NCBI GenBank assembly: GCA_031364845.1
Contig: JANLWX010000138.1
Span: 1 to 11,481 of the forward strand
Source of the DNA: Candidatus Eiseniibacteriota bacterium
GTDB taxonomy: Bacteria > Eisenbacteria > RBG-16-71-46
DNA length: 11,481 nt
Direction of reading: 5' to 3'
Position 1 is the first letter of the stretch. Every line of letters starts with the position of its first letter. Below, piece by piece: positions 83 through 11,481 of the stretch. The notes beneath the pieces were generated by a model. That model saw nothing but the letters and a program-made list of their open reading frames with translations. It was not told the DNA's origin and did not search any database. The translations under genes were made by a program, and so were the position numbers.

Positions 83-119
83 AAAAGAAGAAGCCCCCAA
101 GATTGCTCTCAGGGGCTCC
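83..119 (-). terminator. Rho-independent terminator downstream of tRNA-Ser
   Basis: Minus strand reads GGAGCCCCTGAGA-GCAA-TCTTGGGGGCTTC: a 13-bp stem with G-U pairs and a GNRA loop, followed by TTCTTTT, about 30 nt after the tRNA CCA. Confidence 0.85.
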
Positions 120-151
120 TGCCGGCACTTCCAAGGCTTTCAGCGCCAAAC

Positions 152-241
152 TGGCGGAGAGGGAGGGATTCGAACCCTCGAAGGAGTTGCCCCCTTAACG
201 GTTTTCGAGACCGCCCGATTCAGCCGCTCTCGCACCTCTCC
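152..241 (-). tRNA. tRNA-Ser, anticodon CGA, 90 nt, encoded CCA
   Basis: Minus strand GGAGAGGTGCGAGAGCGGCTGAATCGGGCGGTCTCGAAAACCGTTAAGGGGGCAACTCCTTCGAGGGTTCGAATCCCTCCCTCTCCGCCA. Acceptor stem GGAGAGG/CCTCTCC; anticodon stem GCGGT/ACCGT with loop CTCGAAA (CGA at 205-207); long variable arm AAGGGG-GCAA-CTCCTT; T arm GAGGG-TTCGAAT-CCCTC; discriminator G. Confidence 0.98.
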
Positions 242-250
242 ACCGCTAGG

Positions 251-278
251 ATTACACGAGTTAGCGGGTTGGGTGCAA
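251..278 (-). promoter_or_regulatory. Candidate sigma70-type promoter for the tRNA, overlapping the integrase 3' end
   Basis: Minus strand TTGCAC (273-278), 16-bp spacer, TGTAAT (251-256), ending 9 nt before the tRNA 5' G. A similar arrangement (TTGCGG-N16-TGAATT) sits at the same offset from the tRNA fragment at 7045-7088. Confidence 0.4.
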
Positions 279-416
279 GACGGGTGTGACCACTGATGTG
301 ACCATCTGTCCCTGAATTCGCGCGGCTTCGGCCATCACGTGCGCGTCGCTGAGGCGTCCGTATCGCTGCGTCGTGACGACGCTGGAGTGGCCGAGGATTG
401 CCTGGAGTGCCGAAAG
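261..416 (-). pseudogene. C-terminal remnant (51 aa) of a tyrosine recombinase/integrase
   Basis: Translates to LSALQAILGHSSVVTTQRYGRLSD…, the LGH-x4-TT-x2-Y motif containing the catalytic Tyr. The upstream HxLRH and Arg motifs are absent, and upstream of ~418 the frame runs into the end of the beta-helix gene. Confidence 0.85.
283..302. repeat. Paired TGTGAC direct repeats, candidate integrase arm-type sites (copy 1)
   Basis: GGTGTGACCACTGATGTGAC has TGTGAC twice at a 12-bp period and starts 42 bp from the tRNA 5' end. It is 18/20 identical to 7130-7149. Confidence 0.6.
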
Positions 417-439
417 CGGTCGGGTCACCGTTCCGGGAC

Positions 440-2281
440 TTAGCGCAACCGAATGATGCGCTCCACTTGATGACCGCCAGGGTAGCGATAGTCGAGGAAA
501 TAGATTCCCGGCGCCGCCGATGAGCCGAACCACTCCACTGAGTGTGCTCCGGCCTTCCGCGAACCGTTCACGAGCGATGCCACGTAGCGACCCTGGAGGT
601 CGATTACGTCCATCTCAACCTCGGCCTCGCGAGCAAGGGTGAAGCTGATTCGCAGCGGACCGAACGCGGGGTTCGGTGTTACGCGGACCAATTCGAATCG
701 GCCCGCCAAGCCCGCCAGCACCGACACGGGCTCACTGATCACGACCGCTTGGCCACCTTCTCTCGCGACGAGCCGGTACCAGTACTCCCGGTCTGTCAGG
801 GCGCTACGATCGATGGCTACGCTGAGATCACCGTCGACAGTTTGTTCAGTCGCCACTGCCGCCCACGGTCCCGCGACTACATTCGCCCGCTCAACCGAGA
901 CTTGAGTCAGTCGTGTCGGATCGGCAATCCGCCAACGCACTCGGACGCCATCATGTTCCCGGTCGGCTTGAAAAAGCGTTACCAGAGCTGGCGTTGACGC
1001 GCAGCCCAGACCCCGCGCACCAATCAGCCCGCACTCAGGTGCATCGAGCAACGGCGATTTCGCAGTCAGGCTGACGCTGTCGTTGTCGACGTCGCAGAAC
1101 AAGGGATCGACGAACAAATCCTGTGGCGACGGAGACATGCCGGACACTGCACCAGAGACGTTGGCGAACCAATCGTTGCAGGACAGGCTGGGAATTCGCG
1201 ACTGAGCTCCAACGATGAGACCGTATCCATCATTACCGTACGCGATGTTTCGCTGGATCCGAATTGCGCCATCCAGCCGTGACTCATGCACTTCGAAGCC
1301 AGAGCCGCCGTTGCCGAACGACGTGTTGTTCTGGACGGTGACTCCATAGTAGTCGCTGCGAGTCGAGATCACGATGCCGCTACCACCAGAACGTCCAACA
1401 ACGTTGCCCTCGACCTCTCCGCCCTCTCCGCCAATCTGAATCCCATCGAGCGTCGAGCCGAGAATCAGGTTGTTCTTCACGGTGACAGGGCCATCGGAGA
1501 TCGCGATCCCCACGCCACATGCGAGGACTTGATTGCCGGAGAATTCGGCAGATCCCGCGGACGGCGAATGAGCGTGAAGCGCTAGGCCGGGACAGTCCTC
1601 GATGAGATTGTTGCGAACGGTCAACTGGCCGTCTTGGATCGCGGCGGAAAAACCATTGTCGAACCCACGGATGATGTTGTCCGCGACGTAGCAGCCGGCG
1701 GACGTGTTGAGCGCGATCGCAACACTTCCCGGACCCGTCATTGTGCTGTTAGTCATCGTGAGCCCCGCATCGCTCTCGTAGCTGACGATGATCGGGCCGA
1801 AGACTCGGCAGGATTCGACTTCAACGTAGTGGATCAGGCTGAGGGCGGGATTCCCTCTCAACGTGCAATCCACGAAGCGGAGATGTCCGGGACCGTTGCC
1901 CGCCCCGACGGACGTCACTCCGGAGTCGATCTCGCATCCACGGAACTCCGTGTCCCCCCAATGGACGATCGGTCCGAGCACGTGCAGATTGCGGAAGTTG
2001 AAATCTCCCTCAACCGCGAACATCCGCGGCAACGTCGGAAGCACGCCGAATGAGTCCGGTACACCAATAACCGTGAGAGCGCACCATTGGATGCTGAGTG
2101 GTGATGGTTCCGAGTGGGCGCTCACCATGACGGTGTCGATGACCTGCGAGTGGTCGTTGATCGCGTCAACGACCGCTTGGACGGTCGGAAAATCCCCCGG
2201 AACAGTGACCGTCGCAGCGTAGACAGAGGTGACCATGAACAGGATCAGGGCCGTCAGCAGCGGAACAAGGGAGTGGCGCAT
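440..2281 (-). CDS. Secreted right-handed parallel beta-helix (pectin lyase-like/NosD-like repeat) protein with C-terminal Ig-like and FlgD-Ig/T9SS-CTD-like domains, paralog 1 (613 aa)
   Basis: Signal peptide MRHSLVPLLTALILFMVTSVYA. N-terminal VPGDFPTVQAVVD motif. Repeated VxNNxIxG/GIxI beta-helix rungs. DPLFCD…SPLL cap. C-terminal PNP…ISFTL…DLQGRYVASL…PGIYF…RIIRLR. RBS-like GAAGGA upstream. Confidence 0.9.
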   Translation of the reverse strand: MRHSLVPLLTALILFMVTSVYAATVTVPGDFPTVQAVVDAINDHSQVIDTVMVSAHSEPSPLSIQWCALTVIGVPDSFGVLPTLPRMFAVEGDFNFRNLHVLGPIVHWGDTEFRGCEIDSGVTSVGAGNGPGHLRFVDCTLRGNPALSLIHYVEVESCRVFGPIIVSYESDAGLTMTNSTMTGPGSVAIALNTSAGCYVADNIIRGFDNGFSAAIQDGQLTVRNNLIEDCPGLALHAHSPSAGSAEFSGNQVLACGVGIAISDGPVTVKNNLILGSTLDGIQIGGEGGEVEGNVVGRSGGSGIVISTRSDYYGVTVQNNTSFGNGGSGFEVHESRLDGAIRIQRNIAYGNDGYGLIVGAQSRIPSLSCNDWFANVSGAVSGMSPSPQDLFVDPLFCDVDNDSVSLTAKSPLLDAPECGLIGARGLGCASTPALVTLFQADREHDGVRVRWRIADPTRLTQVSVERANVVAGPWAAVATEQTVDGDLSVAIDRSALTDREYWYRLVAREGGQAVVISEPVSVLAGLAGRFELVRVTPNPAFGPLRISFTLAREAEVEMDVIDLQGRYVASLVNGSRKAGAHSVEWFGSSAAPGIYFLDYRYPGGHQVERIIRLR

Positions 2282-2336
2282 TCAATCGTCCTTCTGCCCA
2301 TGGGTCTAGGCGTGGATGGCGTGCTGCCCACCGACT

Positions 2337-2927
2337 TTAGTTAAACCGCACTCCCACCGACCCCATGACGAGATGCGTCGGGCGGCCGGCCGTGAAGATC
2401 TGATGCCATCGGGCTTGGATGGCAGGCGTTAGTTGAGGACGTATGGGTCGAGCGGGTCCCGAGACTTCGACTCCCAGGCTCAGGCCCAACGAGTGACGGC
2501 TGTACGACTCGGAAAACCCGTTGCGATAGCGATAACGGGCGATCGTCAAGTAGTCCCCGAGACCGACGACGTAATGAAGGCTCACCCTTTCGAGTGGTGC
2601 CCGGAATTTGACGAGAGGAACGAGGCCGAATGACCGGTGATGTGCATCGACGTCTCGTTCAAACGTCGATACAACTTCCATGGACACAGCTTCTTCCCAC
2701 CAGAGCCCTTCAAGACCGAATCCCACGGGGCTGTCGTTGTTGTTGTGAACGATGTCCAACTCGAGGCCGACGCGCAGGTTGAGATGCGCCGCGTCGCGGC
2801 GGCCGATGATCCGCCCCGCTGCCGCTCTCGCTGAAGACGACCAAGGGCTGGCGATGACGAGCGACGGCAGAATCAGAGAGGCCAAGAAGCATACCTGCCA
2901 CGCCAAGCGTGAACATGGCCTCAACAC
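2337..2927 (-). CDS. Hypothetical exported protein, probably a small outer-membrane beta-barrel (~196 aa; start uncertain)
   Basis: Hydrophobic N-terminal signal-like segment. Several strands with alternating hydrophobic/Gly residues (VGFGLEGLW, LHYVVGLGDY, LGLSLGVEVS, AIQARWHQIF). C-terminal VMGSVGVRFN resembles a BamA beta-signal. Co-oriented with its neighbours and fills the gap between them. Confidence 0.6.
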   Translation of the reverse strand: MLRPCSRLAWQVCFLASLILPSLVIASPWSSSARAAAGRIIGRRDAAHLNLRVGLELDIVHNNNDSPVGFGLEGLWWEEAVSMEVVSTFERDVDAHHRSFGLVPLVKFRAPLERVSLHYVVGLGDYLTIARYRYRNGFSESYSRHSLGLSLGVEVSGPARPIRPQLTPAIQARWHQIFTAGRPTHLVMGSVGVRFN

Positions 2928-2999
2928 AACGTGCCATTACATGGGTGTGGGGCAGGTTCCCACGTCCGCGCAGGCAATGCCATCGTCGTGATTAGAGGG

Positions 3000-4778
3000 C
3001 TATCGCAACCGAACCACACGGCTCACGTGACTCCCTCCCGGATAGAGGTATTTGAGAAAGTACAGCCCCGGCGAGAGAGATTGCCCCTTCCACTCCACTC
3101 CATGCTCTCCCGCTGCAAGGGATCCGTGAATCACTTCAGCCACATGGCGACCTTGAAGGTCGAGCACGTCGATTTCGATCTCGCCGTCGCGGGGCAGAGT
3201 GAAGGTGATTCGCAATGGGCCGAAACTTGGATTCGGGGTCACGCCGATGAGTTCAAACCGGCCTGCTGCACCCGCGACCACTGACCTGCCTTCGCCGATC
3301 ACAACCGCCTGCCCTCCTTCACGCGCGACAAGTCGGTACCAGTATTCCTGGTCCGCGACGACGCTACGATCAATGGCAACGCTGGCCTCACCCTCGGCAA
3401 ACCGCTCCGTCACGATCATCGCCCATGGCCCAGCGACATGATCTGATCGCTCGATCCAGATTTCGGCCAACCGTGTCGGATCGGCAAGCTGCCAGCTCAC
3501 GCGCACGCCCTCCTCCACGCGGTGGGCGGTGAACATCGTTACCAAGGTGGCCGTGGACGCGCAGCCCATACCCCTGGCCCCGATCAATCCGCAGCCCGGT
3601 GCGTTGAGCAACGGCGAATTCGCGGCGAGGCTGACGCTGTCGTTCGCGACATCGCAGAACAGAGGGTCGAGGGCAAGGTCAGTCGGCGATGGATCCACAC
3701 CCGAGACGGCGCTCGAATCGTTCCCAAACCAATCGTTGCAGGAAAGCCCGGGATCTACCGGCCCGATCGACAGCAACCCGTGCCCACCGTTGCCGTAGCC
3801 GATGTTGTGCGTGACGTCGTTCTGATCAGGGACTTCAGCCAGAAGGAATGCGAAACCGGAGCCTGCATTACCGAAACTCGTATTGTTGACGACCGCAATA
3901 TCTCTAATGAAGCTCATGGACGGACATTCCAGGTACAGACCGTGCCCGCCACATCTCCCGACAATGTTGCGTTCGATCCGAGCATCGGGGCCCGAGATTC
4001 CGACGGCAATGCCGTGACCAGCGCAATCGGTGACTGTGTTCTCCGACACTTGAACGATTCCGCTGACGCCTATCCCCGTCCCGCAATCCTCGATGACATT
4101 GCGTTCGACGATGACGATGGTCTCTTCACCGCCCGCGCTGATTGCCGACGCAAAGCCCCGGATCGTATTTCCACGGATCGAAACGTGCACATCTCCGGTG
4201 GCGGTGATCGCGGTGCCGTCACTCGGACCGGTAAACGTGGAGTTTCCGACGTTCAAGACTCCATCTTCCCGGAGCACGACCGAGCCCTGATCCAGCCAGC
4301 ACGCATTGATGTCGAGTCCCACATCGCTGTAGGCAAACACGGTTCCCGTAATCCTGCAGCCAACGAAACTCACTGAACGCGGTGACCCATCAATCCCGCT
4401 CGTAAACCCGGATTCGAGACGACATCCGTGAAAAGCAAGGAAGGCTTCACCGATCGTGTGAATAAGCCCGGTGAACCGCAAATTGACGAACGCGGAGATG
4501 TGGTTCGAGTTGACCGTCATGCGGCCAATCGAGGGTCGCGTCAATGAATCGCCCAGGCCCATGACCGTCAAGTCTTCAAGATTCACCGCGTAGAGCGAGT
4601 CCGTGACGACGCCCGGCTTCACGTAGACGGTGTCGAACCTGCCGGTGCTGTTCAGCGAATCCATCACAGCCTGGAGTGTCGGAATGTCGTCTGGAACCGT
4701 CACGCTCGTAGCATGGGCAGGCAGATGCGCGATCAGAAGAGCGACGATCGACAGTAGAAGCAAGGCAGAGCGGCCCAT
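3000..4778 (-). CDS. Secreted parallel beta-helix protein with the same C-terminal module, paralog 2 (592 aa)
   Basis: ATG at 4778 has GGAGGA 7 nt upstream, preferred over the TTG at 4793. Signal peptide ends AHA/TSVTVPDDIPTLQA. Same architecture as paralog 1; ends RVVRLR. Confidence 0.9.
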   Translation of the reverse strand: MGRSALLLLSIVALLIAHLPAHATSVTVPDDIPTLQAVMDSLNSTGRFDTVYVKPGVVTDSLYAVNLEDLTVMGLGDSLTRPSIGRMTVNSNHISAFVNLRFTGLIHTIGEAFLAFHGCRLESGFTSGIDGSPRSVSFVGCRITGTVFAYSDVGLDINACWLDQGSVVLREDGVLNVGNSTFTGPSDGTAITATGDVHVSIRGNTIRGFASAISAGGEETIVIVERNVIEDCGTGIGVSGIVQVSENTVTDCAGHGIAVGISGPDARIERNIVGRCGGHGLYLECPSMSFIRDIAVVNNTSFGNAGSGFAFLLAEVPDQNDVTHNIGYGNGGHGLLSIGPVDPGLSCNDWFGNDSSAVSGVDPSPTDLALDPLFCDVANDSVSLAANSPLLNAPGCGLIGARGMGCASTATLVTMFTAHRVEEGVRVSWQLADPTRLAEIWIERSDHVAGPWAMIVTERFAEGEASVAIDRSVVADQEYWYRLVAREGGQAVVIGEGRSVVAGAAGRFELIGVTPNPSFGPLRITFTLPRDGEIEIDVLDLQGRHVAEVIHGSLAAGEHGVEWKGQSLSPGLYFLKYLYPGGSHVSRVVRLR

Positions 4779-4841
4779 GCGGCTATCCTCCAAGACAATT
4801 GGCGACGTCCCTTGACGATAAATCGACGGCCTGGGGTCAGG

Positions 4842-6677
4842 TCAGCGTAACCGGATCACTCGCTCCACCTGATGGCCGCCCGGGAAGCGATAGTCTACGA
4901 GATAGATCCCGGGCGAGACCGATCTCCCACTCCACTCCACAGTGTGCGTTCCGGCGGCACGAGAACCGCCAACAAGCGAAGTCACAAGACGACCTTGGAG
5001 ATCGAGCACATCCACTGCGACCGACGCCTCTCGGGCCAGGGTGAAGCTGATACTCATGGGACCAAATCCGGGATTCGGCGCCACTCGGGTGAGCTCGAAT
5101 CGAGCAGCCATGCTTCCAGAAACCGACACGGGCTCACTGATCACGAATTCACTGCCGGCACCCACGACGAGACGGTACCAGTACCTGTGTTCGGGCTGCG
5201 CATTGCGATCAAGCGCGATGATCACGTCGCCTTCAGTGGTTCGTTCGGCGGCAACAACCGCCCACGGCCCGGCAATCACGTCCGCCCGCTCGACCCGCAC
5301 TTCGTAAAGGCGCGCAGGATCGGCCAGTCTCCAGCTCACTCGCACTCCATTGGCTTCGCGTTGCGCCGTGAACATCGTCACCAGCGTGGGCGTGGCCGCG
5401 CATCCCACCCCCCGCGCGCCGATCAATCCACATCCTGGTGCGTTGAGCAACGGCGAATCAGCGGCCAGAGACACACTGTCGAGATCGACATCGCAGAGGA
5501 GCGGATCGAGTGCCAGGTCGTCGGCAGATGCGCCTATGCCCTCGACAGCGCTCGAGTCATTGCCAAACCAATCGTTGCACGACAGCGTGAATTCCGCCCC
5601 GAGCGAGAGCAATCCGTGGCCGCCATTGCGGTAGCCAATGTTGTGCGTGACTACATCCGGCACGCCACCGTGAGCCGCCCGGGACACGGCGTCTGGATTG
5701 CTGTCCAAATCGCGGACGAACCCGGACCATGCGTTGTCATAGCTCGTGTTGTTGCGAACAGCGACGGCACCGTAAGTACTCCCGACGCGGCGCTCGATGA
5801 ACAATCCGTTACGGCCCGAGCGAGCGACGATGTTGCGCTCGCAGTTGCCATCAGTCTCGATCACACGAAGCCGAATGCCATCCCCGGTGCAATCGGTGAC
5901 GATGTTGCCTACGACCTGACGAGGGTTGGTTACATCGATGCCTATACCACAACGGCGCACTTGGTTCCCAAAGAGCGACCCATCTTCCTGCAATGACACG
6001 CCCACGCTGCACATTTCAATAACGTTGTTCGTGATGGCGAACGATCCATCACCGTAAATGGCAGTCCCCAGATCGCGGAACGTGCAGCCTTGGACTACGG
6101 TTTCGGGATCAAATCCGCCCACTGCCCTGACTCCGTAACTGGCCGGGCCTCTAAAGGCGCTGTTGCGCACCGTCAGCCGGCTATCCTCTTGGTTCACGAT
6201 GGTGCCTTGGTCGAACCAGCATGAATCGACATTTACGAAGGCATCACTCACGGCGAGCACGGTCCCCGAGATGCGGCAACCGACCATCGTTACATTGCGC
6301 GGGCCTCCATTGATCAACGTTGTGAAACCGGCCTCGAATCGACAGTCCCGAAAGATGGAGTTCCCTTGCGTGGCTGTTTGAACCGAGCCCGAAAACCGCA
6401 GGTTGACGAACGTGGCGTCTTGGTCGAACAACATTGAAGCGACCGAAGGACGGCTCAAAGAATCGCCCAGCCCGATCACGATGTGATTACCGAGATTGTG
6501 TGTTTCGATCGGGCCAGACACGACGCCCGGCTTCACGAAGACCGTGTCCGCGGGCTGGCTGTTCAACGAGTTGAACGCTGCCTGGAGCGTTGCAAAGTCG
6601 TCAGGAACGGTCACTGACGTGGCATACGCGGGCGCTACTGTGAACAGCAGCAGGGCGATGGGCAAAGAGCGTCGCAC
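4842..6677 (-). CDS. Secreted parallel beta-helix protein with the same C-terminal module, paralog 3 (611 aa)
   Basis: In-frame GTG at 6677 has AAGGAGA 8 nt upstream and gives signal peptide MRRSLPIALLLFTVAPAYA/TSVTVPDDFATLQA, matching the paralogs. The ORF-track start at 6803 is probably too long. Ends RVIRLR. Confidence 0.9.
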   Translation of the reverse strand: MRRSLPIALLLFTVAPAYATSVTVPDDFATLQAAFNSLNSQPADTVFVKPGVVSGPIETHNLGNHIVIGLGDSLSRPSVASMLFDQDATFVNLRFSGSVQTATQGNSIFRDCRFEAGFTTLINGGPRNVTMVGCRISGTVLAVSDAFVNVDSCWFDQGTIVNQEDSRLTVRNSAFRGPASYGVRAVGGFDPETVVQGCTFRDLGTAIYGDGSFAITNNVIEMCSVGVSLQEDGSLFGNQVRRCGIGIDVTNPRQVVGNIVTDCTGDGIRLRVIETDGNCERNIVARSGRNGLFIERRVGSTYGAVAVRNNTSYDNAWSGFVRDLDSNPDAVSRAAHGGVPDVVTHNIGYRNGGHGLLSLGAEFTLSCNDWFGNDSSAVEGIGASADDLALDPLLCDVDLDSVSLAADSPLLNAPGCGLIGARGVGCAATPTLVTMFTAQREANGVRVSWRLADPARLYEVRVERADVIAGPWAVVAAERTTEGDVIIALDRNAQPEHRYWYRLVVGAGSEFVISEPVSVSGSMAARFELTRVAPNPGFGPMSISFTLAREASVAVDVLDLQGRLVTSLVGGSRAAGTHTVEWSGRSVSPGIYLVDYRFPGGHQVERVIRLR

Positions 6678-6918
6678 GCGGTCATTCTCCTTCCGATGGT
6701 CGACCACCGGGTAGATCGAGTTTATCTCCCTCGCGTGAGGGTGGGGATCATACACCCGTGGATCCGGCGTTGTTCTCATTATTGGAGCGGGATAGCGGGT
6801 CAATGAGGGCCTGTCCTGATTTCTGTGTAAGCCCCTTCCGGGTCACGCGGGCAGTCGTCCTTCCGACATGATGGCAACCTGATTCAGGGCGAACGCCACT
6901 ATATCGTCCTGGTTGATG

Positions 6919-6936
6919 GGTGTACGATCGGTGTAC
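6919..6936. repeat. GGTGTAC direct repeat pair (11-bp period), candidate arm-type or regulator site
   Basis: GGTGTACgatcGGTGTAC in non-coding DNA about 110 bp inside the att-like tRNA fragment. Confidence 0.4.
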
Positions 6937-7044
6937 ACCTCATCGTCCTTTCTGGCCAGCAACAAGACCCTGCCGAAAATGCGGCACGGGCTTGGAATTG
7001 CAAGGGCTAACGTGATTTCCGCGGATCGAGGCGGTGTGGGTCAA

Positions 7045-7088
7045 AACGATTTTCGAGACCGCTGATTCAGCCGCTCTCGCACCTCTCC
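7045..7088 (-). repeat. Degenerate copy of the 5' half of tRNA-Ser(CGA); att-like junction
   Basis: 7064-7088 equals 217-241 (25/25). 7050-7062 equals 202-214 (13/13, includes the anticodon loop). 7045-7048 equals 197-200. Differences are G201 to A and CC215-216 to a single T. No variable arm, T arm or 3' acceptor strand follows. Confidence 0.92.
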
Positions 7089-7129
7089 GGGACGAGAAAT
7101 TCACGACTTACGAGGTTCTCCGCAACTCA

Positions 7130-7149
7130 GGTGTGACCGCTGCTGTGAC
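7130..7149. repeat. Paired TGTGAC direct repeats, candidate integrase arm-type sites (copy 2)
   Basis: GGTGTGACCGCTGCTGTGAC starts 42 bp from the 5' end of the tRNA fragment, the same offset as copy 1. Confidence 0.6.
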
Positions 7150-7302
7150 GAACTTCCCCATTGGGGACCTCGCGACGGGACTACAATGGTGTCCGTCGTT
7201 ACGGGGCACGAGTCCAAGACGCGCGCGAACCGCCTTCGACTGTTCGGCGAGTGCCCCGCCGAGATCGTTGGGTGGCCCGTCCAATTTCGAATTGGAGTAA
7301 AC

Positions 7303-7692
7303 ATGAGAAGCAACTTCCTGTACGCATGCTCCGGTCTGCTCGCCTTGACCCTCGCGGTTCACGCCGGCGCACGAATGGCAGCCGCACAGGATCCCGATCC
7401 CATTGTCGGAATTTCGACAGCCCCCTGCGGGGGTCTCGTTGCGGTCAGCCAGTCTGGGATTGTCTACGCGAAGTGCCTCAATGTGTGGGAACAGAAGGCC
7501 AACGTGCCCGGTCCGGTCAGTTGCATCTTTGGAGAACCCGGCCAATACATCATCATCGTCCTGCAGAATGGCGACGTCTACGAAACGCCCGGCGCCAACA
7601 GCTGGGAATTCTATGCAAACGGCAACGTCCGCGGCGGTCCTACGCCTGCGAACAGGAAAAGCCTGGGGCAGGTGAAGACGAAGTGGCGCTGA
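7303..7692 (+). CDS. Small secreted beta-rich protein (129 aa) with C-terminal tag PTPANRKSLGQVKTKWR
   Basis: GGAG RBS at 7294-7297 before the ATG at 7303. Signal peptide MRSNFLYACSGLLALTLAVHAG…AAA. Two similar beta-hairpin units (LVAVSQSGIVY…W and IIIVLQNGDVY…W). Basic C-terminal motif. Confidence 0.8.
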   Translation: MRSNFLYACSGLLALTLAVHAGARMAAAQDPDPIVGISTAPCGGLVAVSQSGIVYAKCLNVWEQKANVPGPVSCIFGEPGQYIIIVLQNGDVYETPGANSWEFYANGNVRGGPTPANRKSLGQVKTKWR

Positions 7693-7734
7693 CGGCAACA
7701 GTTGCTCCAGCGCCCGAGAATTCGGGAGGGGTGC

Positions 7735-10497
7735 ATGGTTCTCTCAAGTGTCATTAGGAGACGGAAGCCGCCTCTCGGTTGCCGGCGCGTTGTAAGGCTC
7801 TCGTGGGCGCTACTGTTCGTCCTCGCTAAAACGCACACCGCGCTTGCCCAGACGGTTGACCCGGCGCTATGGGTCACCGATGGGGCGGTCAACTCCGTGG
7901 TCCACTACGCGGGGACGATCTACATCGGCGGCTCGTTCAACCACGTGCAACCGATAACAGGCAGCGCCGTGGCACTAGACGCGAGCACCGGGGCGGCGCG
8001 GCAGCCTTACCCTGAAGTGATAGGCCCCGCGAATTCCGTCGCGGTCGTGACAGCCTCCGTGTCTGCCGTCGTACCGGATGGGAGCGGAGGCTGGTACATC
8101 GGCGGAAGCTTCACTTCCGTCCGTGGTCAAGCGCGTCGCGGACTCGCACAACTGGATGCCGATGGAAACGTCACTTCATGGAATCCGGACGTGAACGGTA
8201 CCGTAAGCGCCCTGGCGTTGAGCGGGGGCACGATCTTCGCGGGAGGCAGCTTCACGAGCATCGGAGGCCAGGCGCGCAACAACATCGCCGCGCTGGAGGC
8301 CGCCACCGGAGCGGCGACGAGCTGGAACCCCAACGCGAGCGGCCCTGATCCATACGGCGCCAGCGTCTACGCCTTGGCGGTTAGCGGGGCCACGGTCTAC
8401 GTCGGCGGTGACTTCAAGTACATCGGAGGCCAGCCACGGAACTCTATTGCCGCGCTCGACGCCGCCACCGGAGCCGCCACGAGCTGGAACCCCGACCTCA
8501 GACCCTCGAACGGCGGCGTTCTCGCCCTGATGGTAAACGGGAGCACGGTCTACGCTGGGGGCGGCTTCGATAGCATCGGACGCCAGCCGCGCAACAACAT
8601 CGCCGCGCTGGATGCCGCCACCGGCGTCGCCACGGCCTGGAACCCGAACGCCACCCGGTTAGTCTACACACTGGCGATGAGCGGGGGCACGGTCTACGCC
8701 GGTGGGCTCATGGATAGCATAGGTGGGCAGGCGCGCACCGGAGTCGCCGCGCTCGATGCAGCCACTGGCGTCGCCACGAGCTGGAACCCGAACGCGAGCG
8801 GTAATTATCAATACGTCATTACCCTGGCGGTAAGCGGGAGCACAATTTACGTCGGAGGCGGCTTTACCGGCATAGGCGGCCAGCCGCGCAAGCAAATCGC
8901 CGCGCTCGATGCGACGACCGGCGCGGCCACAGGCTGGGACCCAAACGCGACCCTCGGCCCCTATCTTAGCGCTCCTACCGTCCTCGCCCTGGCGGTGAGC
9001 GGGGGCACCGTCTACGCAGGTGGCACTTTCTTGAGCATTGGCGGCCGAACGCGCAACAACATCGCCGCACTCGATGTCGCGAGCGGCGCCGCCACAAGCT
9101 GGGACCCGGACGCGAACGGCGACATCCTTGCCCTGAGCGTGGTGGGGGGCACGGTTTACGCTGGCGGAGACTTCACCAGCATCGGCGGCCAGCCACGCAA
9201 CCACATCGCCGCGCTCGACGCCGCAAACGGCACGGCCACGAGCTGGAATCCGGATGCGAATGGCGGCGTCGTCGTCCTGGCGGTGAGCGGGAGCACCGTC
9301 TACGCCGGCGGCAGCTTCACGGACATAGGTGGCCACCCGCGCAGTCGAATCGCCGCGCTCGATGCCGCCACCGGCGCCCCAACCGATTGGAACCCGGATG
9401 CGAACGGCATCGTTCGCGCCCTGGCGGTGGGTGAAGGCACGGTCTACGTCGGCGGCGGATTCAATAGCATCGGCAGGCAGCCGCGCAGCTTCATCGCCGG
9501 GCTCGATGCCGCCACCGGCGCCGCAACGAGCTGGGATCCGAACGCGAACAACGTTGTCCTCGCACTGGCGGTGAGCGGGGGCACGGCTTACGCGGGCGGC
9601 CACTTCACCAGCATCGGCGGCCAGAACCGCAATAGCATCGCCGCGGTCGATGCGGCCACCGGTGTCGCCACAAATTGGAATCCCAACGCGGATGGTGCCG
9701 TCCGCACCATAGTGGCGAGCGGGAACACGGTCTACGCGAGCGGGGCCTTCGGCCACATCGGCGGGCAGAGGCGATTCAGTATCGCCGCGCTCGATGCCGC
9801 AACCGGTACCGCCACAATCTGGGATGCGAAACCCAACAACTACGTCAACACCTTGGCTGTGAGCGGGAGCACGGTCTATGCCGGCGGCAATTTCCGCAGC
9901 ATTGGCGGGCTGCCCCACTCTGGCATCGCCGCAATGACCGATGACACCACGCCCACGCTGCTCTCGCTGGTAAGCGCCCAGGCTGAGCCGGGCCGCGTGC
10001 GGCTCACGTGGTTCGCCGAGGATAAACACGGCCTGACCGCGACCGTGTACCGGCACACCGTGAAGGAGGTATGGGGCGTTGTCGGCGAAATCTCGACCGA
10101 TGGGACCGGGCGGCTGGTATTCGAGGACACGCGTGTGATCCCAGGCGAGCGCTATGGCTACCGGCTGGGCATCTTGGTGCACGGATCCGAGGAGTTCCTA
10201 GGGGAGACGTGGGTGGACGTGCCGCGCGCGCCGGAGTTCGCGCTGGCCGGTTTGCGTCCCAACCCGACGTCGAGCGCCCTCGTGGTGGCACTCTCGCTGC
10301 CGGACGCCGCTCCGGCGCGGCTCGAGCTGCTGGACCTTGCGGGGCGCCGGATGCTCGTTCGAGACGTGGGAGCGCTGGGGGGCGGGAGCCACGTCGTGGC
10401 ATTGGCCGAGCCGAGAAGGATCGCGCCTGGCCTCTACCTGCTCCGCCTCGTGCGTGACGGTCGGGCGCTCATGGTGAGGGCGATCGTCGTTCGTTAG
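7735..10497 (+). CDS. Secreted repeat beta-propeller protein (14 blade-like repeats) with C-terminal Ig-like and FlgD-Ig/T9SS-CTD-like domains (~920 aa)
   Basis: GGAGG RBS 5 nt before the ATG at 7735. Signal peptide ends TALA/Q. Repeats of about 49-56 aa with consensus ALAVSGxTVYAGGxFxSIGGQxRNxIAALDAATGxATxWNPxANxxV. Tail TPTLLSLVSA…YGYRL…FALAGLRPNP…DLAGRR…PGLYLLRL…RAIVVR. Confidence 0.92.
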   Translation: MVLSSVIRRRKPPLGCRRVVRLSWALLFVLAKTHTALAQTVDPALWVTDGAVNSVVHYAGTIYIGGSFNHVQPITGSAVALDASTGAARQPYPEVIGPANSVAVVTASVSAVVPDGSGGWYIGGSFTSVRGQARRGLAQLDADGNVTSWNPDVNGTVSALALSGGTIFAGGSFTSIGGQARNNIAALEAATGAATSWNPNASGPDPYGASVYALAVSGATVYVGGDFKYIGGQPRNSIAALDAATGAATSWNPDLRPSNGGVLALMVNGSTVYAGGGFDSIGRQPRNNIAALDAATGVATAWNPNATRLVYTLAMSGGTVYAGGLMDSIGGQARTGVAALDAATGVATSWNPNASGNYQYVITLAVSGSTIYVGGGFTGIGGQPRKQIAALDATTGAATGWDPNATLGPYLSAPTVLALAVSGGTVYAGGTFLSIGGRTRNNIAALDVASGAATSWDPDANGDILALSVVGGTVYAGGDFTSIGGQPRNHIAALDAANGTATSWNPDANGGVVVLAVSGSTVYAGGSFTDIGGHPRSRIAALDAATGAPTDWNPDANGIVRALAVGEGTVYVGGGFNSIGRQPRSFIAGLDAATGAATSWDPNANNVVLALAVSGGTAYAGGHFTSIGGQNRNSIAAVDAATGVATNWNPNADGAVRTIVASGNTVYASGAFGHIGGQRRFSIAALDAATGTATIWDAKPNNYVNTLAVSGSTVYAGGNFRSIGGLPHSGIAAMTDDTTPTLLSLVSAQAEPGRVRLTWFAEDKHGLTATVYRHTVKEVWGVVGEISTDGTGRLVFEDTRVIPGERYGYRLGILVHGSEEFLGETWVDVPRAPEFALAGLRPNPTSSALVVALSLPDAAPARLELLDLAGRRMLVRDVGALGGGSHVVALAEPRRIAPGLYLLRLVRDGRALMVRAIVVR
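7880..9935 (+). repeat. Intragenic coding tandem repeats (about 147-170 bp units; boundaries approximate)
   Basis: Recurring DNA cores such as atcgccgcgctcgatgccgccaccgg and gagctggaaccc stay in frame with the propeller blades. Confidence 0.85.
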
Positions 10498-10543
10498 ATC
10501 CTGCCGGACCACCCGCGTCAACACGGGCGTGAGCGAACGCTTA

Positions 10544-11152
10544 TCACTCAGCCCGCGATGCGGCCCGTGCAATGCGGGCGATCTCCTTGGCGATGTCCTC
10601 GGGAGCAAGAACAAAATCGATGCACCCGCTTTCGATTGCGCTAACAGGCATATCGGGCGCCTTGGCTGTGTCTGGACTCTGCGCAATCGTAATGCCACCC
10701 ACATCTCTTATGCCGCAAAGTGCGGCTGCGCCGTCACCGTCATATCCCGAAACGATGATTGCGATCAGTTTGCCGTCCCAATGCTTGGTGAGGGATTGCA
10801 GAAAGACCGTGATCACGTCAGGCCATCCCCGCGGCTTGGATATCGGCTTCAGGCGGAACTCACCATCAAGGATATGCAGATCGCGCTGCTCCGGGATGAT
10901 GAACACGTGGTTGGGCTGGATATCCAGACGTTCTGTGATCAGTTCAACGGGCATCGTGGTGAAACGTGGAAGAATCACGTGGAGCTGGGTGGATACGGTT
11001 CTCAGGTGATTGACGATGACGATGGCAACCCCCAAATCAGCCGGGAGATGTCGAAGTAACCGCGTGTAGGCGTCGAGCCCACCGGCCGAACCGCCGACAC
11101 AGACGACGGGAAAGTCTTTTGAAGAGTCTTTGGCAATACCCTTGGCACTCAT
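10544..11152 (-). CDS. cheB: Stand-alone CheB-type protein-glutamate methylesterase domain protein (~202 aa, no receiver domain)
   Basis: VVCVGGSAGG (catalytic Ser), IVIVNH (His), VSGYDGDGAAAL (Asp), GGITIAQSPDTA…DMPVSAI…IDFVLAPEDIA. Tandem stops TGA TAA. Start is ATG 11152 or TTG 11158. Confidence 0.9.
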   Translation of the reverse strand: MSAKGIAKDSSKDFPVVCVGGSAGGLDAYTRLLRHLPADLGVAIVIVNHLRTVSTQLHVILPRFTTMPVELITERLDIQPNHVFIIPEQRDLHILDGEFRLKPISKPRGWPDVITVFLQSLTKHWDGKLIAIIVSGYDGDGAAALCGIRDVGGITIAQSPDTAKAPDMPVSAIESGCIDFVLAPEDIAKEIARIARAASRAE

Positions 11153-11329
11153 TCGCAATCATCCGCCCCCGAGAGTTCATTCAGATGGAACGCCGGAAAA
11201 ATCGCCGAACATGGGCACCGCGACCTTTTCCGTCGAGCATCTCCGGATCCGTTCCCGCACTCTATACCTTCCAGTCCAGCGCGTGCAGAGGTCTGATGCC
11301 CGCTTGATGACCGGATGAATGTCCTCTGA

Positions 11330-11481
11330 CCAACCGTTCGCTCGGCCGCGTCGTTCGGGCTCACCGCGCTGGCGGTCGTCGACATAGCGCTCGAGCGCTG
11401 ACCCCTGATTGCGCGCCTGGATGATCGCCTTGCCGAGTGCTGACCTCGGCAGCGCCTTTGTCTCCGCGAGACCGAGCCACG
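11330..11481 (-). pseudogene. Degenerate, frameshifted IS66-family transposase (TnpC) fragment running off the window edge
   Basis: Minus strand gives WLGLAETKALPRSALGKAIIQARNQGSALERYVDD and then, in another frame, VSPNDAAERTV. This matches the IS66 TnpC segment WL…LPKSxLGKAIxYxLNQWxxLxRYxxDGxLxIDNNxAERxIR. Similarity is lost after ~11330. Confidence 0.75.

Follow-up and report, generated by a model that had tools for sequence, protein, structure and literature searches.

Which half of a transfer RNA (tRNA) gene an integrating element rebuilds, and on which side of the gene it then lies, is the question raised by an 11,481-nucleotide (nt) stretch of DNA, hereafter the window, which is the entire contig C231 of a 4.6-Mb, 233-contig Candidatus (Ca.) Eisenbacteria genome (G000). 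The window holds an intact tRNA-Ser(CGA) gene and, upstream of it, a copy of the 5' half of that gene. We conclude, with a probability of roughly 0.85, that the 6.8-kb interval between them (242–7044) is the relic of an island that restored the 5' part of the gene by recombination in the anticodon loop, and that this relic is one member of a tandem array.

Results

A tRNA half stranded upstream of the intact gene

The initial annotation had described a 44-bp repeat of the tRNA 5' half, in direct orientation upstream of the gene, and this was borne out: the 44 nt at 7088–7045 correspond to tRNA positions 1–45 with 93% identity (E = 1.3e-11, in a search against the whole 4.6-Mb genome). The copy carries a 1-nt deletion and a substitution before the anticodon stem and a further substitution at position 41, and the perfect 13-nt block noted earlier, positions 28–40, indeed contains the anticodon loop. 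Three overlapping contigs of run X1, possibly the source sample, cover 193–10583 without a difference, and a contig of a second sample (X2) likewise covers 7033–7512. The integrase tail said to end about 20 bp before the tRNA has its stop codon at 263–261, 19 nt upstream of the tRNA start. Its open reading frame (ORF; 261–533) matches positions 146–171 of PF00589 (E = 0.0055, 16.9 bits against a cut-off of 27.1), a family to which a full-length relative scores 69 bits, above the cut-off. At the DNA level, the tail matches another full-length relative (L149) at 75% over 221 nt including the tRNA half (E = 5e-41), and the similarity to the full-length relative starts near 421. Since PF00589 is represented only by a tail of about 52 codons below the cut-off, we regard the island as a relic and not as an active representative of tRNA-targeted integrase islands.

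The site of recombination can be bracketed by tRNA fragments; many 5' fragments were found when 61 genomes were searched with this tRNA. The Ser(CGA) 5' fragments diverge from the gene at position 40, the first base after the loop, in 20 of 31 cases, at 41 in four, at 42 in three and later in four, in a count where any earlier divergence would be invisible as the search pattern required an intact loop. Of three 3' fragments, two begin with the first base of the loop (position 33) and one at 32. The two sets overlap in the 7-nt anticodon loop, positions 33–39, which is the core of site A and an established overlap site for tyrosine integrases (PMC8371274). The element therefore likely recombined there, which supports the initial proposal of an element that carries the tRNA 5' half, crosses over in the anticodon loop and sits upstream.

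The placement of an element upstream of the tRNA in the initial annotation stands but is incomplete. The repeat is no half displaced from the host; it joins the island, itself a decayed relic, to an older tandem element of the same group. Nucleotides 7089–7158 hold the last ~17 codons of another integrase (stop codon 7110–7108, of the L155/L171/L076 type), which ends at the same offset from the tRNA half as the first one, together with a repeat pair (7131–7150) and a promoter-like motif whose downstream hexamer (7096–7101) lacks its first T. This end matches L171 at 78% over 106 nt including the tRNA half (E = 6e-21), and the 70 nt preceding the fragment resemble the 70 nt preceding the intact tRNA. 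Because the fragment is preceded by the last codons of a second integrase, the stranded 5' half is the right end of an older element, and the window shows a tandem array. The second integrase tail was absent from the initial annotation, as were the end of an IS256-family element (6809–6892) and, on contig C87, a fragment from the 3' part of this tRNA, both considered below.

These findings led us to propose the following course of events. The element at 242–7044 likely crossed over in the anticodon loop and, by supplying a promoter and a 5' half of its own, likely made the gene whole again from its 5' side. Its attachment site (attP) would have read, in order, integrase, arm repeats and promoter (both overlapping the last integrase codons), tRNA 5' half, loop and left arm. 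Integration would leave the previous 5' half upstream and rebuild the gene at the integrase end, so that each newcomer would land beside the intact gene and older elements would be pushed upstream.

Related integrases

We used a query alignment of ten integrases, the full-length ones having intact catalytic motifs, and fetched 78 genome, 79 metagenome and 15 viral loci, the first two sets representing the best 80 of 165 and of 456 hits, respectively. For 176 distinct integrase C-termini, tRNA features were scored within 600 nt. Such a feature was present for 115 of them and absent for 50, and 11 sequences were too short. A co-directional tRNA 5' start followed the integrase in 93 of the 115 (66 whole genes, 17 true 5' fragments and 10 cut by contig ends), a share that is inflated to an unknown degree, given that the query alignment was rich in such 5'-type proteins, that hits were ranked against one 5'-type protein and that kin and near-duplicates are not independent. 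A co-directional 3' or internal fragment followed in 13 cases and a convergent tRNA, facing the integrase with its 3' end, in nine. One of the 66 whole-gene calls (L025) is a spurious tRNA, with the real Ser(CGA) about 300 nt past the stop. Of the 50 C-termini without such a feature, 18 have a co-directional 5' start at 499–1270 nt, one a 3' fragment and three a convergent tRNA. The 5'-type targets comprise six isotypes, i.e., Ser(CGA), Ser(TGA), Arg(CCT), Arg(TCT), Cys(GCA) and Lys(TTT). The window's exact distance from stop codon to tRNA recurs in 16 of 39 Ser(CGA) 5'-type loci, and in several Arg(CCT) elements the two are only about 8 nt apart. The 5'-side layout, a rare exception elsewhere, is thus the commonest one among the related integrases sampled, and full-length homologs, whose association with 3'-fragment sites alone would have refuted the initial annotation by its own terms, mostly end at tRNA 5' starts.

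The closest named homologs come mostly from Ca. Eisenbacteria genomes. In NCBIfam the proteins score about 100 bits against the XerC cut-off of 335 and 61–66 bits against the integron integrase cut-off of 265, which places them outside the XerC, XerD and integron families. No close relative was found among annotated phages and plasmids, the best hits listed being 24–31% identical. Both element ends could be seen in six cases (G001, G020, G029, L132, L135 and L210): G001 has two integrases 12 kb apart, each stopping just before a tRNA 5' start, G020 a two-member stack and G029 a 77-kb interval. Two intact relatives (L035 and L047) encode the integrase, an HTH_17 protein, a Replic_Relax protein and a weakly scoring coupling-type ATPase, and others carry Prim-Pol/D5 (L031) or a rolling-circle Rep (L037). 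By these mobility genes they resemble integrative mobilizable elements; none of the genes survives in the window. In L035, L036 and L047 a JAB-ThiF fusion gene lies beside the relaxase and ATPase genes, in elements of both 5' and 3' type.

Elements of the 5' type and those of the co-directional 3' type likely perform the same recombination and would differ only in which junction completes the gene. The 3'-type integrases look interspersed among the 5'-type ones in the tree. Repeated switching between the two was considered: the tree needs eight changes for 11 co-directional 3'-type rows, at least three of them forced by well-supported branches. An approximately unbiased (AU) test on 97 rows (excluding those that were short or unclassified, a frameshifted one and a near-duplicate) does not reject a single origin (p = 0.21), and we keep repeated switching as a lead only. 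Two further groups deserve mention. In one subclade (L079, L083, L091, L175, L184, L185 and L191), the integrase stops at a conserved, short-looped palindrome that is not a tRNA and gave no Rfam match in the three loci tested. A well-supported side clade (L182, L113, L109 and L133, also L057 and L108) faces tRNA-Arg(CCT) from downstream in four loci, at up to 1.4 kb and opposite a 5'-type element, and is possibly a fixed relic. Rfam at its gathering threshold gave no match in the window or in three loci and missed the tRNA itself, so that this search was uninformative.

Attachment arms and the integrity of the relic

In the relatives, right arms carry a repeat pair with 12-bp spacing about 45–75 nt before the tRNA, and left arms typically a hairpin, short repeats of 10–11 bp and an 11-bp-spaced pair about 135–175 nt past the loop. 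The left and right arms share 9–14 nt in six of 13 relative intervals, among them those of G001, G029 and both G020 members; non-cognate arm pairs reach 8 nt in 18 of 182 cases. The window has a right-arm pair of this kind (cf. Table 1). On its left side, the IS256 end begins about 158 nt after the loop and covers the place of the expected repeat pair; it is 88% identical over 84 nt to the end of contig C34 that adjoins an IS256 transposase remnant. With the integrase deleted and the place of the left arm repeats taken by the IS256 end, the element can probably no longer move. The likely degenerate pair at 6918–6936 had been entertained as mismatched arm sites, implying a chimera, and was dropped from that role because its position and spacing fit accessory repeats.

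The strongest competitor, which we consider unlikely though well worth weighing, accepts the geometry and makes 242–7044 a composite, in which the left end of one element became deletion-fused to the right end of another and some cargo arrived later. It draws on the arms of the two ends, which do not match, on the loss of most of the integrase, on the IS256 end inside the interval and on the cargo, a beta-helix family with many paralogs elsewhere in the source genome. However, an IS256 end sitting over the expected matching repeats explains the mismatch without any fusion, and beta-helix homologs occur just inside the left arms of L032 and L147. In L147 (10001–12433), an integrase tail is fused directly to a left arm, the promoter end and the tRNA half being missing, and this piece adjoins a beta-helix homolog of the window's cargo. 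Runs X3/X4 of another study contain pieces about 93–95% identical to 274–442 and 978–2209; one of them, extending out of the integrase tail as far as the stop codon of the cargo, hints at a related strain that shares the integrase deletion, with a cargo side too short to count as bridging.

A promoter-like motif before the tRNA

Seven nt before the tRNA, and overlapping the last integrase codons, lies a promoter-like motif. Its general form (a TTG-type hexamer, a 17–19-nt spacer and a TA-type hexamer, 6–10 nt before the tRNA) was found in 34 of 36 element arms, as compared with 25 of 20,000 random 48-mers (0.1%) and 91 of 15,000 shuffled sequences (0.6%), and one of the two arms without it is the window's stranded copy. 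The motif overlaps the last codons wherever the integrase ends close by, as in the window, and the TTG hexamer keeps its 17–19-nt spacing even where the integrase ends hundreds of bases upstream. In the source genome, tRNA-Val(GAC) is preceded by a perfect TTGACA and then the same second hexamer. Judging from these sequence features, the motif is the putative promoter of the tRNA.

Alternatively, the motif might be an architectural site of the attachment arm (e.g., of IHF type), the tRNA being transcribed by read-through from the integrase or the cargo, for which the archaeal pTN3-like elements offer a precedent (PMC8371274). The weak second hexamer and the Arg(CCT) elements with their ~8 nt between stop codon and tRNA lean that way. 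Against it stand the spacing that does not depend on the integrase end, the tRNA-Val(GAC) example, the loss of the first T of the second hexamer in the stranded copy and the terminator-like hairpin, read by eye, past the crossover in many left arms; we judge this explanation slightly less probable than the composite one. A third reading, in which the tRNA copy arose by chance, by duplication or through misassembly and the genes between it and the tRNA are ordinary chromosomal ones, is negligible in our estimation: only the sub-threshold integrase tail speaks for it, and an E value of 1e-11, the second sample that covers the fragment and its upstream flank, the lack of a syntenic cargo block in the fetched loci and, above all, the recurrence in dozens of loci with intact integrases effectively refute it.

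Several observations weigh against a restored 5' end and its proposed promoter, in addition to the sampling limits given with the counts above. Only 6 nt are common to the two arms in the window, a match at background level, so that its ends may stem from different elements, and seven of the 13 relative intervals lack an arm match of at least 9 nt. The motif fails strict sigma-70 scans, which gave no match; its position-6 T is mostly absent; it precedes only three of 49 tRNA or transfer-messenger RNA genes of the source genome; and 18 of 39 starts that lack arm repeats have it as well. The 5' half that the host originally had was found neither genome-wide nor behind tadA on contig C138. No joint between the two att copies, as expected of excision, appeared in the contigs of six runs, contigs being prone to drop rare variants, and no empty site or strain without just this element was seen among relatives.

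The 3' side and the ancestral site

On contig C87 of the source genome, a related integrase, with about 60% identity to the tail, precedes tRNA positions 29–90, beyond which host genes extend to Ser(GGA), Ala(CGC) and a likely dnaX. The variable arm of this fragment is that of the intact G001 and G029 tRNA, while the window's differs, and one C87 gene is 58% identical to a gene downstream of the tRNA in G001. The C87 piece therefore likely represents the 3' half that the tRNA first had, pushed away by an island of the conventional kind, on a link that would join two separate contigs; this related, 3'-restoring element would have used the same loop, and nucleotides 1–151 of the window are possibly its left arm. 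The tRNA was then likely replaced on both sides, with promoter, 5' half and 3' half all element-derived.

Of 11 genomes that belong to other orders of the class, seven have tadA no more than about 100 nt from the tRNA; in two it is 3–8 kb away, one has no tadA match and one is ambiguous. In all six family members with both genes on one contig, the distances are 1.9, 11, 35, 51, 68 and 108 kb, intervals only partly filled by recognisable fragments. Island accretion, partly documented by these fragments, is the likely cause of the separation. A tblastx search aimed at a host gene shared on the upstream side gave no informative result.

Other tRNA genes of the source genome present similar pictures. 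On C138 (10663–14749; L053), a perfect 40-nt 5' half of tRNA-Ser(TGA) lies 4 kb upstream of the gene, a second 5'-fragment island, with one 1220-aa ORF and no integrase seen. For tRNA-Arg(CCT), two 5' fragments lie on contigs other than its own, and one 3' fragment follows the gene at 3 kb (C226:8034–8072, C152:8368–8405 and C111:3328–6499), so that this tRNA, too, has been used from both sides.

Cargo and remaining features

The features of the window are collected in Table 1. All three beta-helix paralogs carry FlgD- and type IX secretion system (T9SS)-like tails, and apart from the paralogs in the source genome the family has scattered full-length homologs in a few relatives. Long cargo matches outside the window were limited to L032, L057 and L147 among 242 loci, and in these 242 fetched loci of relatives the cargo was never found as a syntenic block before an intact tRNA, the arrangement that by the initial annotation's own terms would have refuted its island. 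Farther upstream, 7702–11479 encodes a 931-aa DUF5122 propeller protein with about twelve repeats of 48–54 residues, an orphan CheB methylesterase and, at the contig end, a weak IS66-like remnant (E = 0.059). The left end of the older element is not on this contig and was not found in the assembly.

Table 1. Features of the window, with coordinates and strand
Feature	Position	Strand	Basis
Intrinsic-terminator-like hairpin after the tRNA	89..120	-	
Intact tRNA-Ser(CGA)	152..241	-	ARAGORN
7-nt anticodon loop, likely crossover (overlap) region, right junction	203..209	-	fragment bracketing
Promoter-like motif: TTG-type hexamer 273–278, 18-nt spacer, TA-type hexamer 249–254	249..278	-	
Last ~52 codons of tyrosine integrase, LGH and catalytic-Tyr region; remainder deleted	261..421	-	
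Direct-repeat pair, 12-bp spacing, likely integrase arm-binding sites	284..304	-	
Beta-helix protein, C-terminal FlgD/T9SS-like domain, likely secreted (cargo)	440..2281	-	
196-aa cargo ORF, no Pfam/NCBIfam family	2337..2927	-	
Second beta-helix paralog (cargo)	3000..4793	-	
Third beta-helix paralog (cargo), true start probably near 6680	4842..6803	-	
IS256-family element end, where relatives have the left arm-repeat pair	6809..6892	-	
11-bp-spaced repeat pair, left arm; likely degenerate, putative accessory (excisionase-type) sites	6918..6936	-	
tRNA-Ser(CGA) 5' half through anticodon arm, loop 7051–7057; two tandem elements join here	7045..7088	-	
Right arm of second, older element	7089..7158	-	
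Likely cargo of the older element: small ORF, DUF5122 propeller, CheB, IS66-like remnant	7186..11479	.	

Discussion

The initial annotation had held that island finders which look only for 3' fragments miss this layout. For Islander this is wrong, as it allows a 5' fragment upstream of the gene and lists 159 such cases among 3919 islands (4%; PMC4383910). The novelty of the geometry was likewise overstated, given these islands, those at Klebsiella arg2 and the archaeal pTN3-like elements. Islander looks for an intact tRNA gene (tDNA) and an end fragment in the same orientation, 2–200 kb apart; the window has exactly this arrangement at 152–241 and 7045–7088, with the 5' fragment upstream and 6.8 kb in between. 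Its integrase filter might still reject the candidate, of which only the integrase tail survives. The likeness to the Islander cases extends to the tyrosine integrase, the intact tDNA with a displaced fragment in direct orientation, the anticodon-centred site and tandem arrays (PMC4383910). Unlike the 4% there, about four fifths of the classifiable loci of a single integrase group are of this type here, and the main text of the Islander paper gives no promoter or arm anatomy for 5'-fragment islands (PMC4383910). In Klebsiella, integrases of clade I.d insert at the 5' end of arg2, and two strains have islands at both ends (bioRxiv 10.1101/2020.11.02.365908). Common to Klebsiella and the present group are the upstream position of the islands, an integrase clade dedicated to it and the occurrence of islands at both ends of one tRNA. 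The Klebsiella shared block comprises the acceptor 5' half, D-stem and D-loop of one tRNA and ends in that loop; here it runs on through the anticodon loop, and six isotypes are involved.

In pTN3-like elements, attP lies inside the integrase gene, and integration splits that gene. Here, in contrast, the integrase is whole, with the ORFs of full-length relatives containing all catalytic motifs and ending before the tRNA, and a separate promoter-like motif sits at its 3' end. What the archaeal integrases share with the present group is the use of the 5' half, the tRNA there being driven from the integrase promoter (PMC8371274). We found no paper on this integrase group, including in a search combining Eisenbacteria, integrase and tRNA, although Williams 2002, cited via a review, may detail bacterial 5' cases; nothing further came from PMC13626063, PMC12884075 and PMC10111431.

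What stands out, then, is an integrase group, mostly from Ca. Eisenbacteria, in which a rare layout with known precedents predominates. A bolder proposal, to which we would give slightly less than even odds, is that of an undescribed integrase lineage centred on Ca. Eisenbacteria, for which front-end replacement would be the default, with a portable tRNA promoter in the last codons, at least six isotypes and an alternation, at one and the same loop, between restoring the 5' and the 3' half; stacking would have moved tRNA-Ser(CGA) up to at least 100 kb from tadA, and the order's tRNA gene and promoter would be inherited from mobile elements.

In bacteria, integration that restores the 5' half is described as a rarely encountered exception (PMC8371274), since the element then has to provide transcription as well. 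Within the present group there are dozens of naturally occurring cases of regular anatomy, along with close relatives in which the 3' half is restored at that loop. More than the copy in the window, which is a dead relic, the integrase group and the arm with its putative promoter are of interest. The group makes the takeover of a host tRNA promoter by an element testable, it suggests that the choice of the rebuilt half is separate from the site of integrase cleavage, and its stacked arrays give a relative time order of acquisitions.

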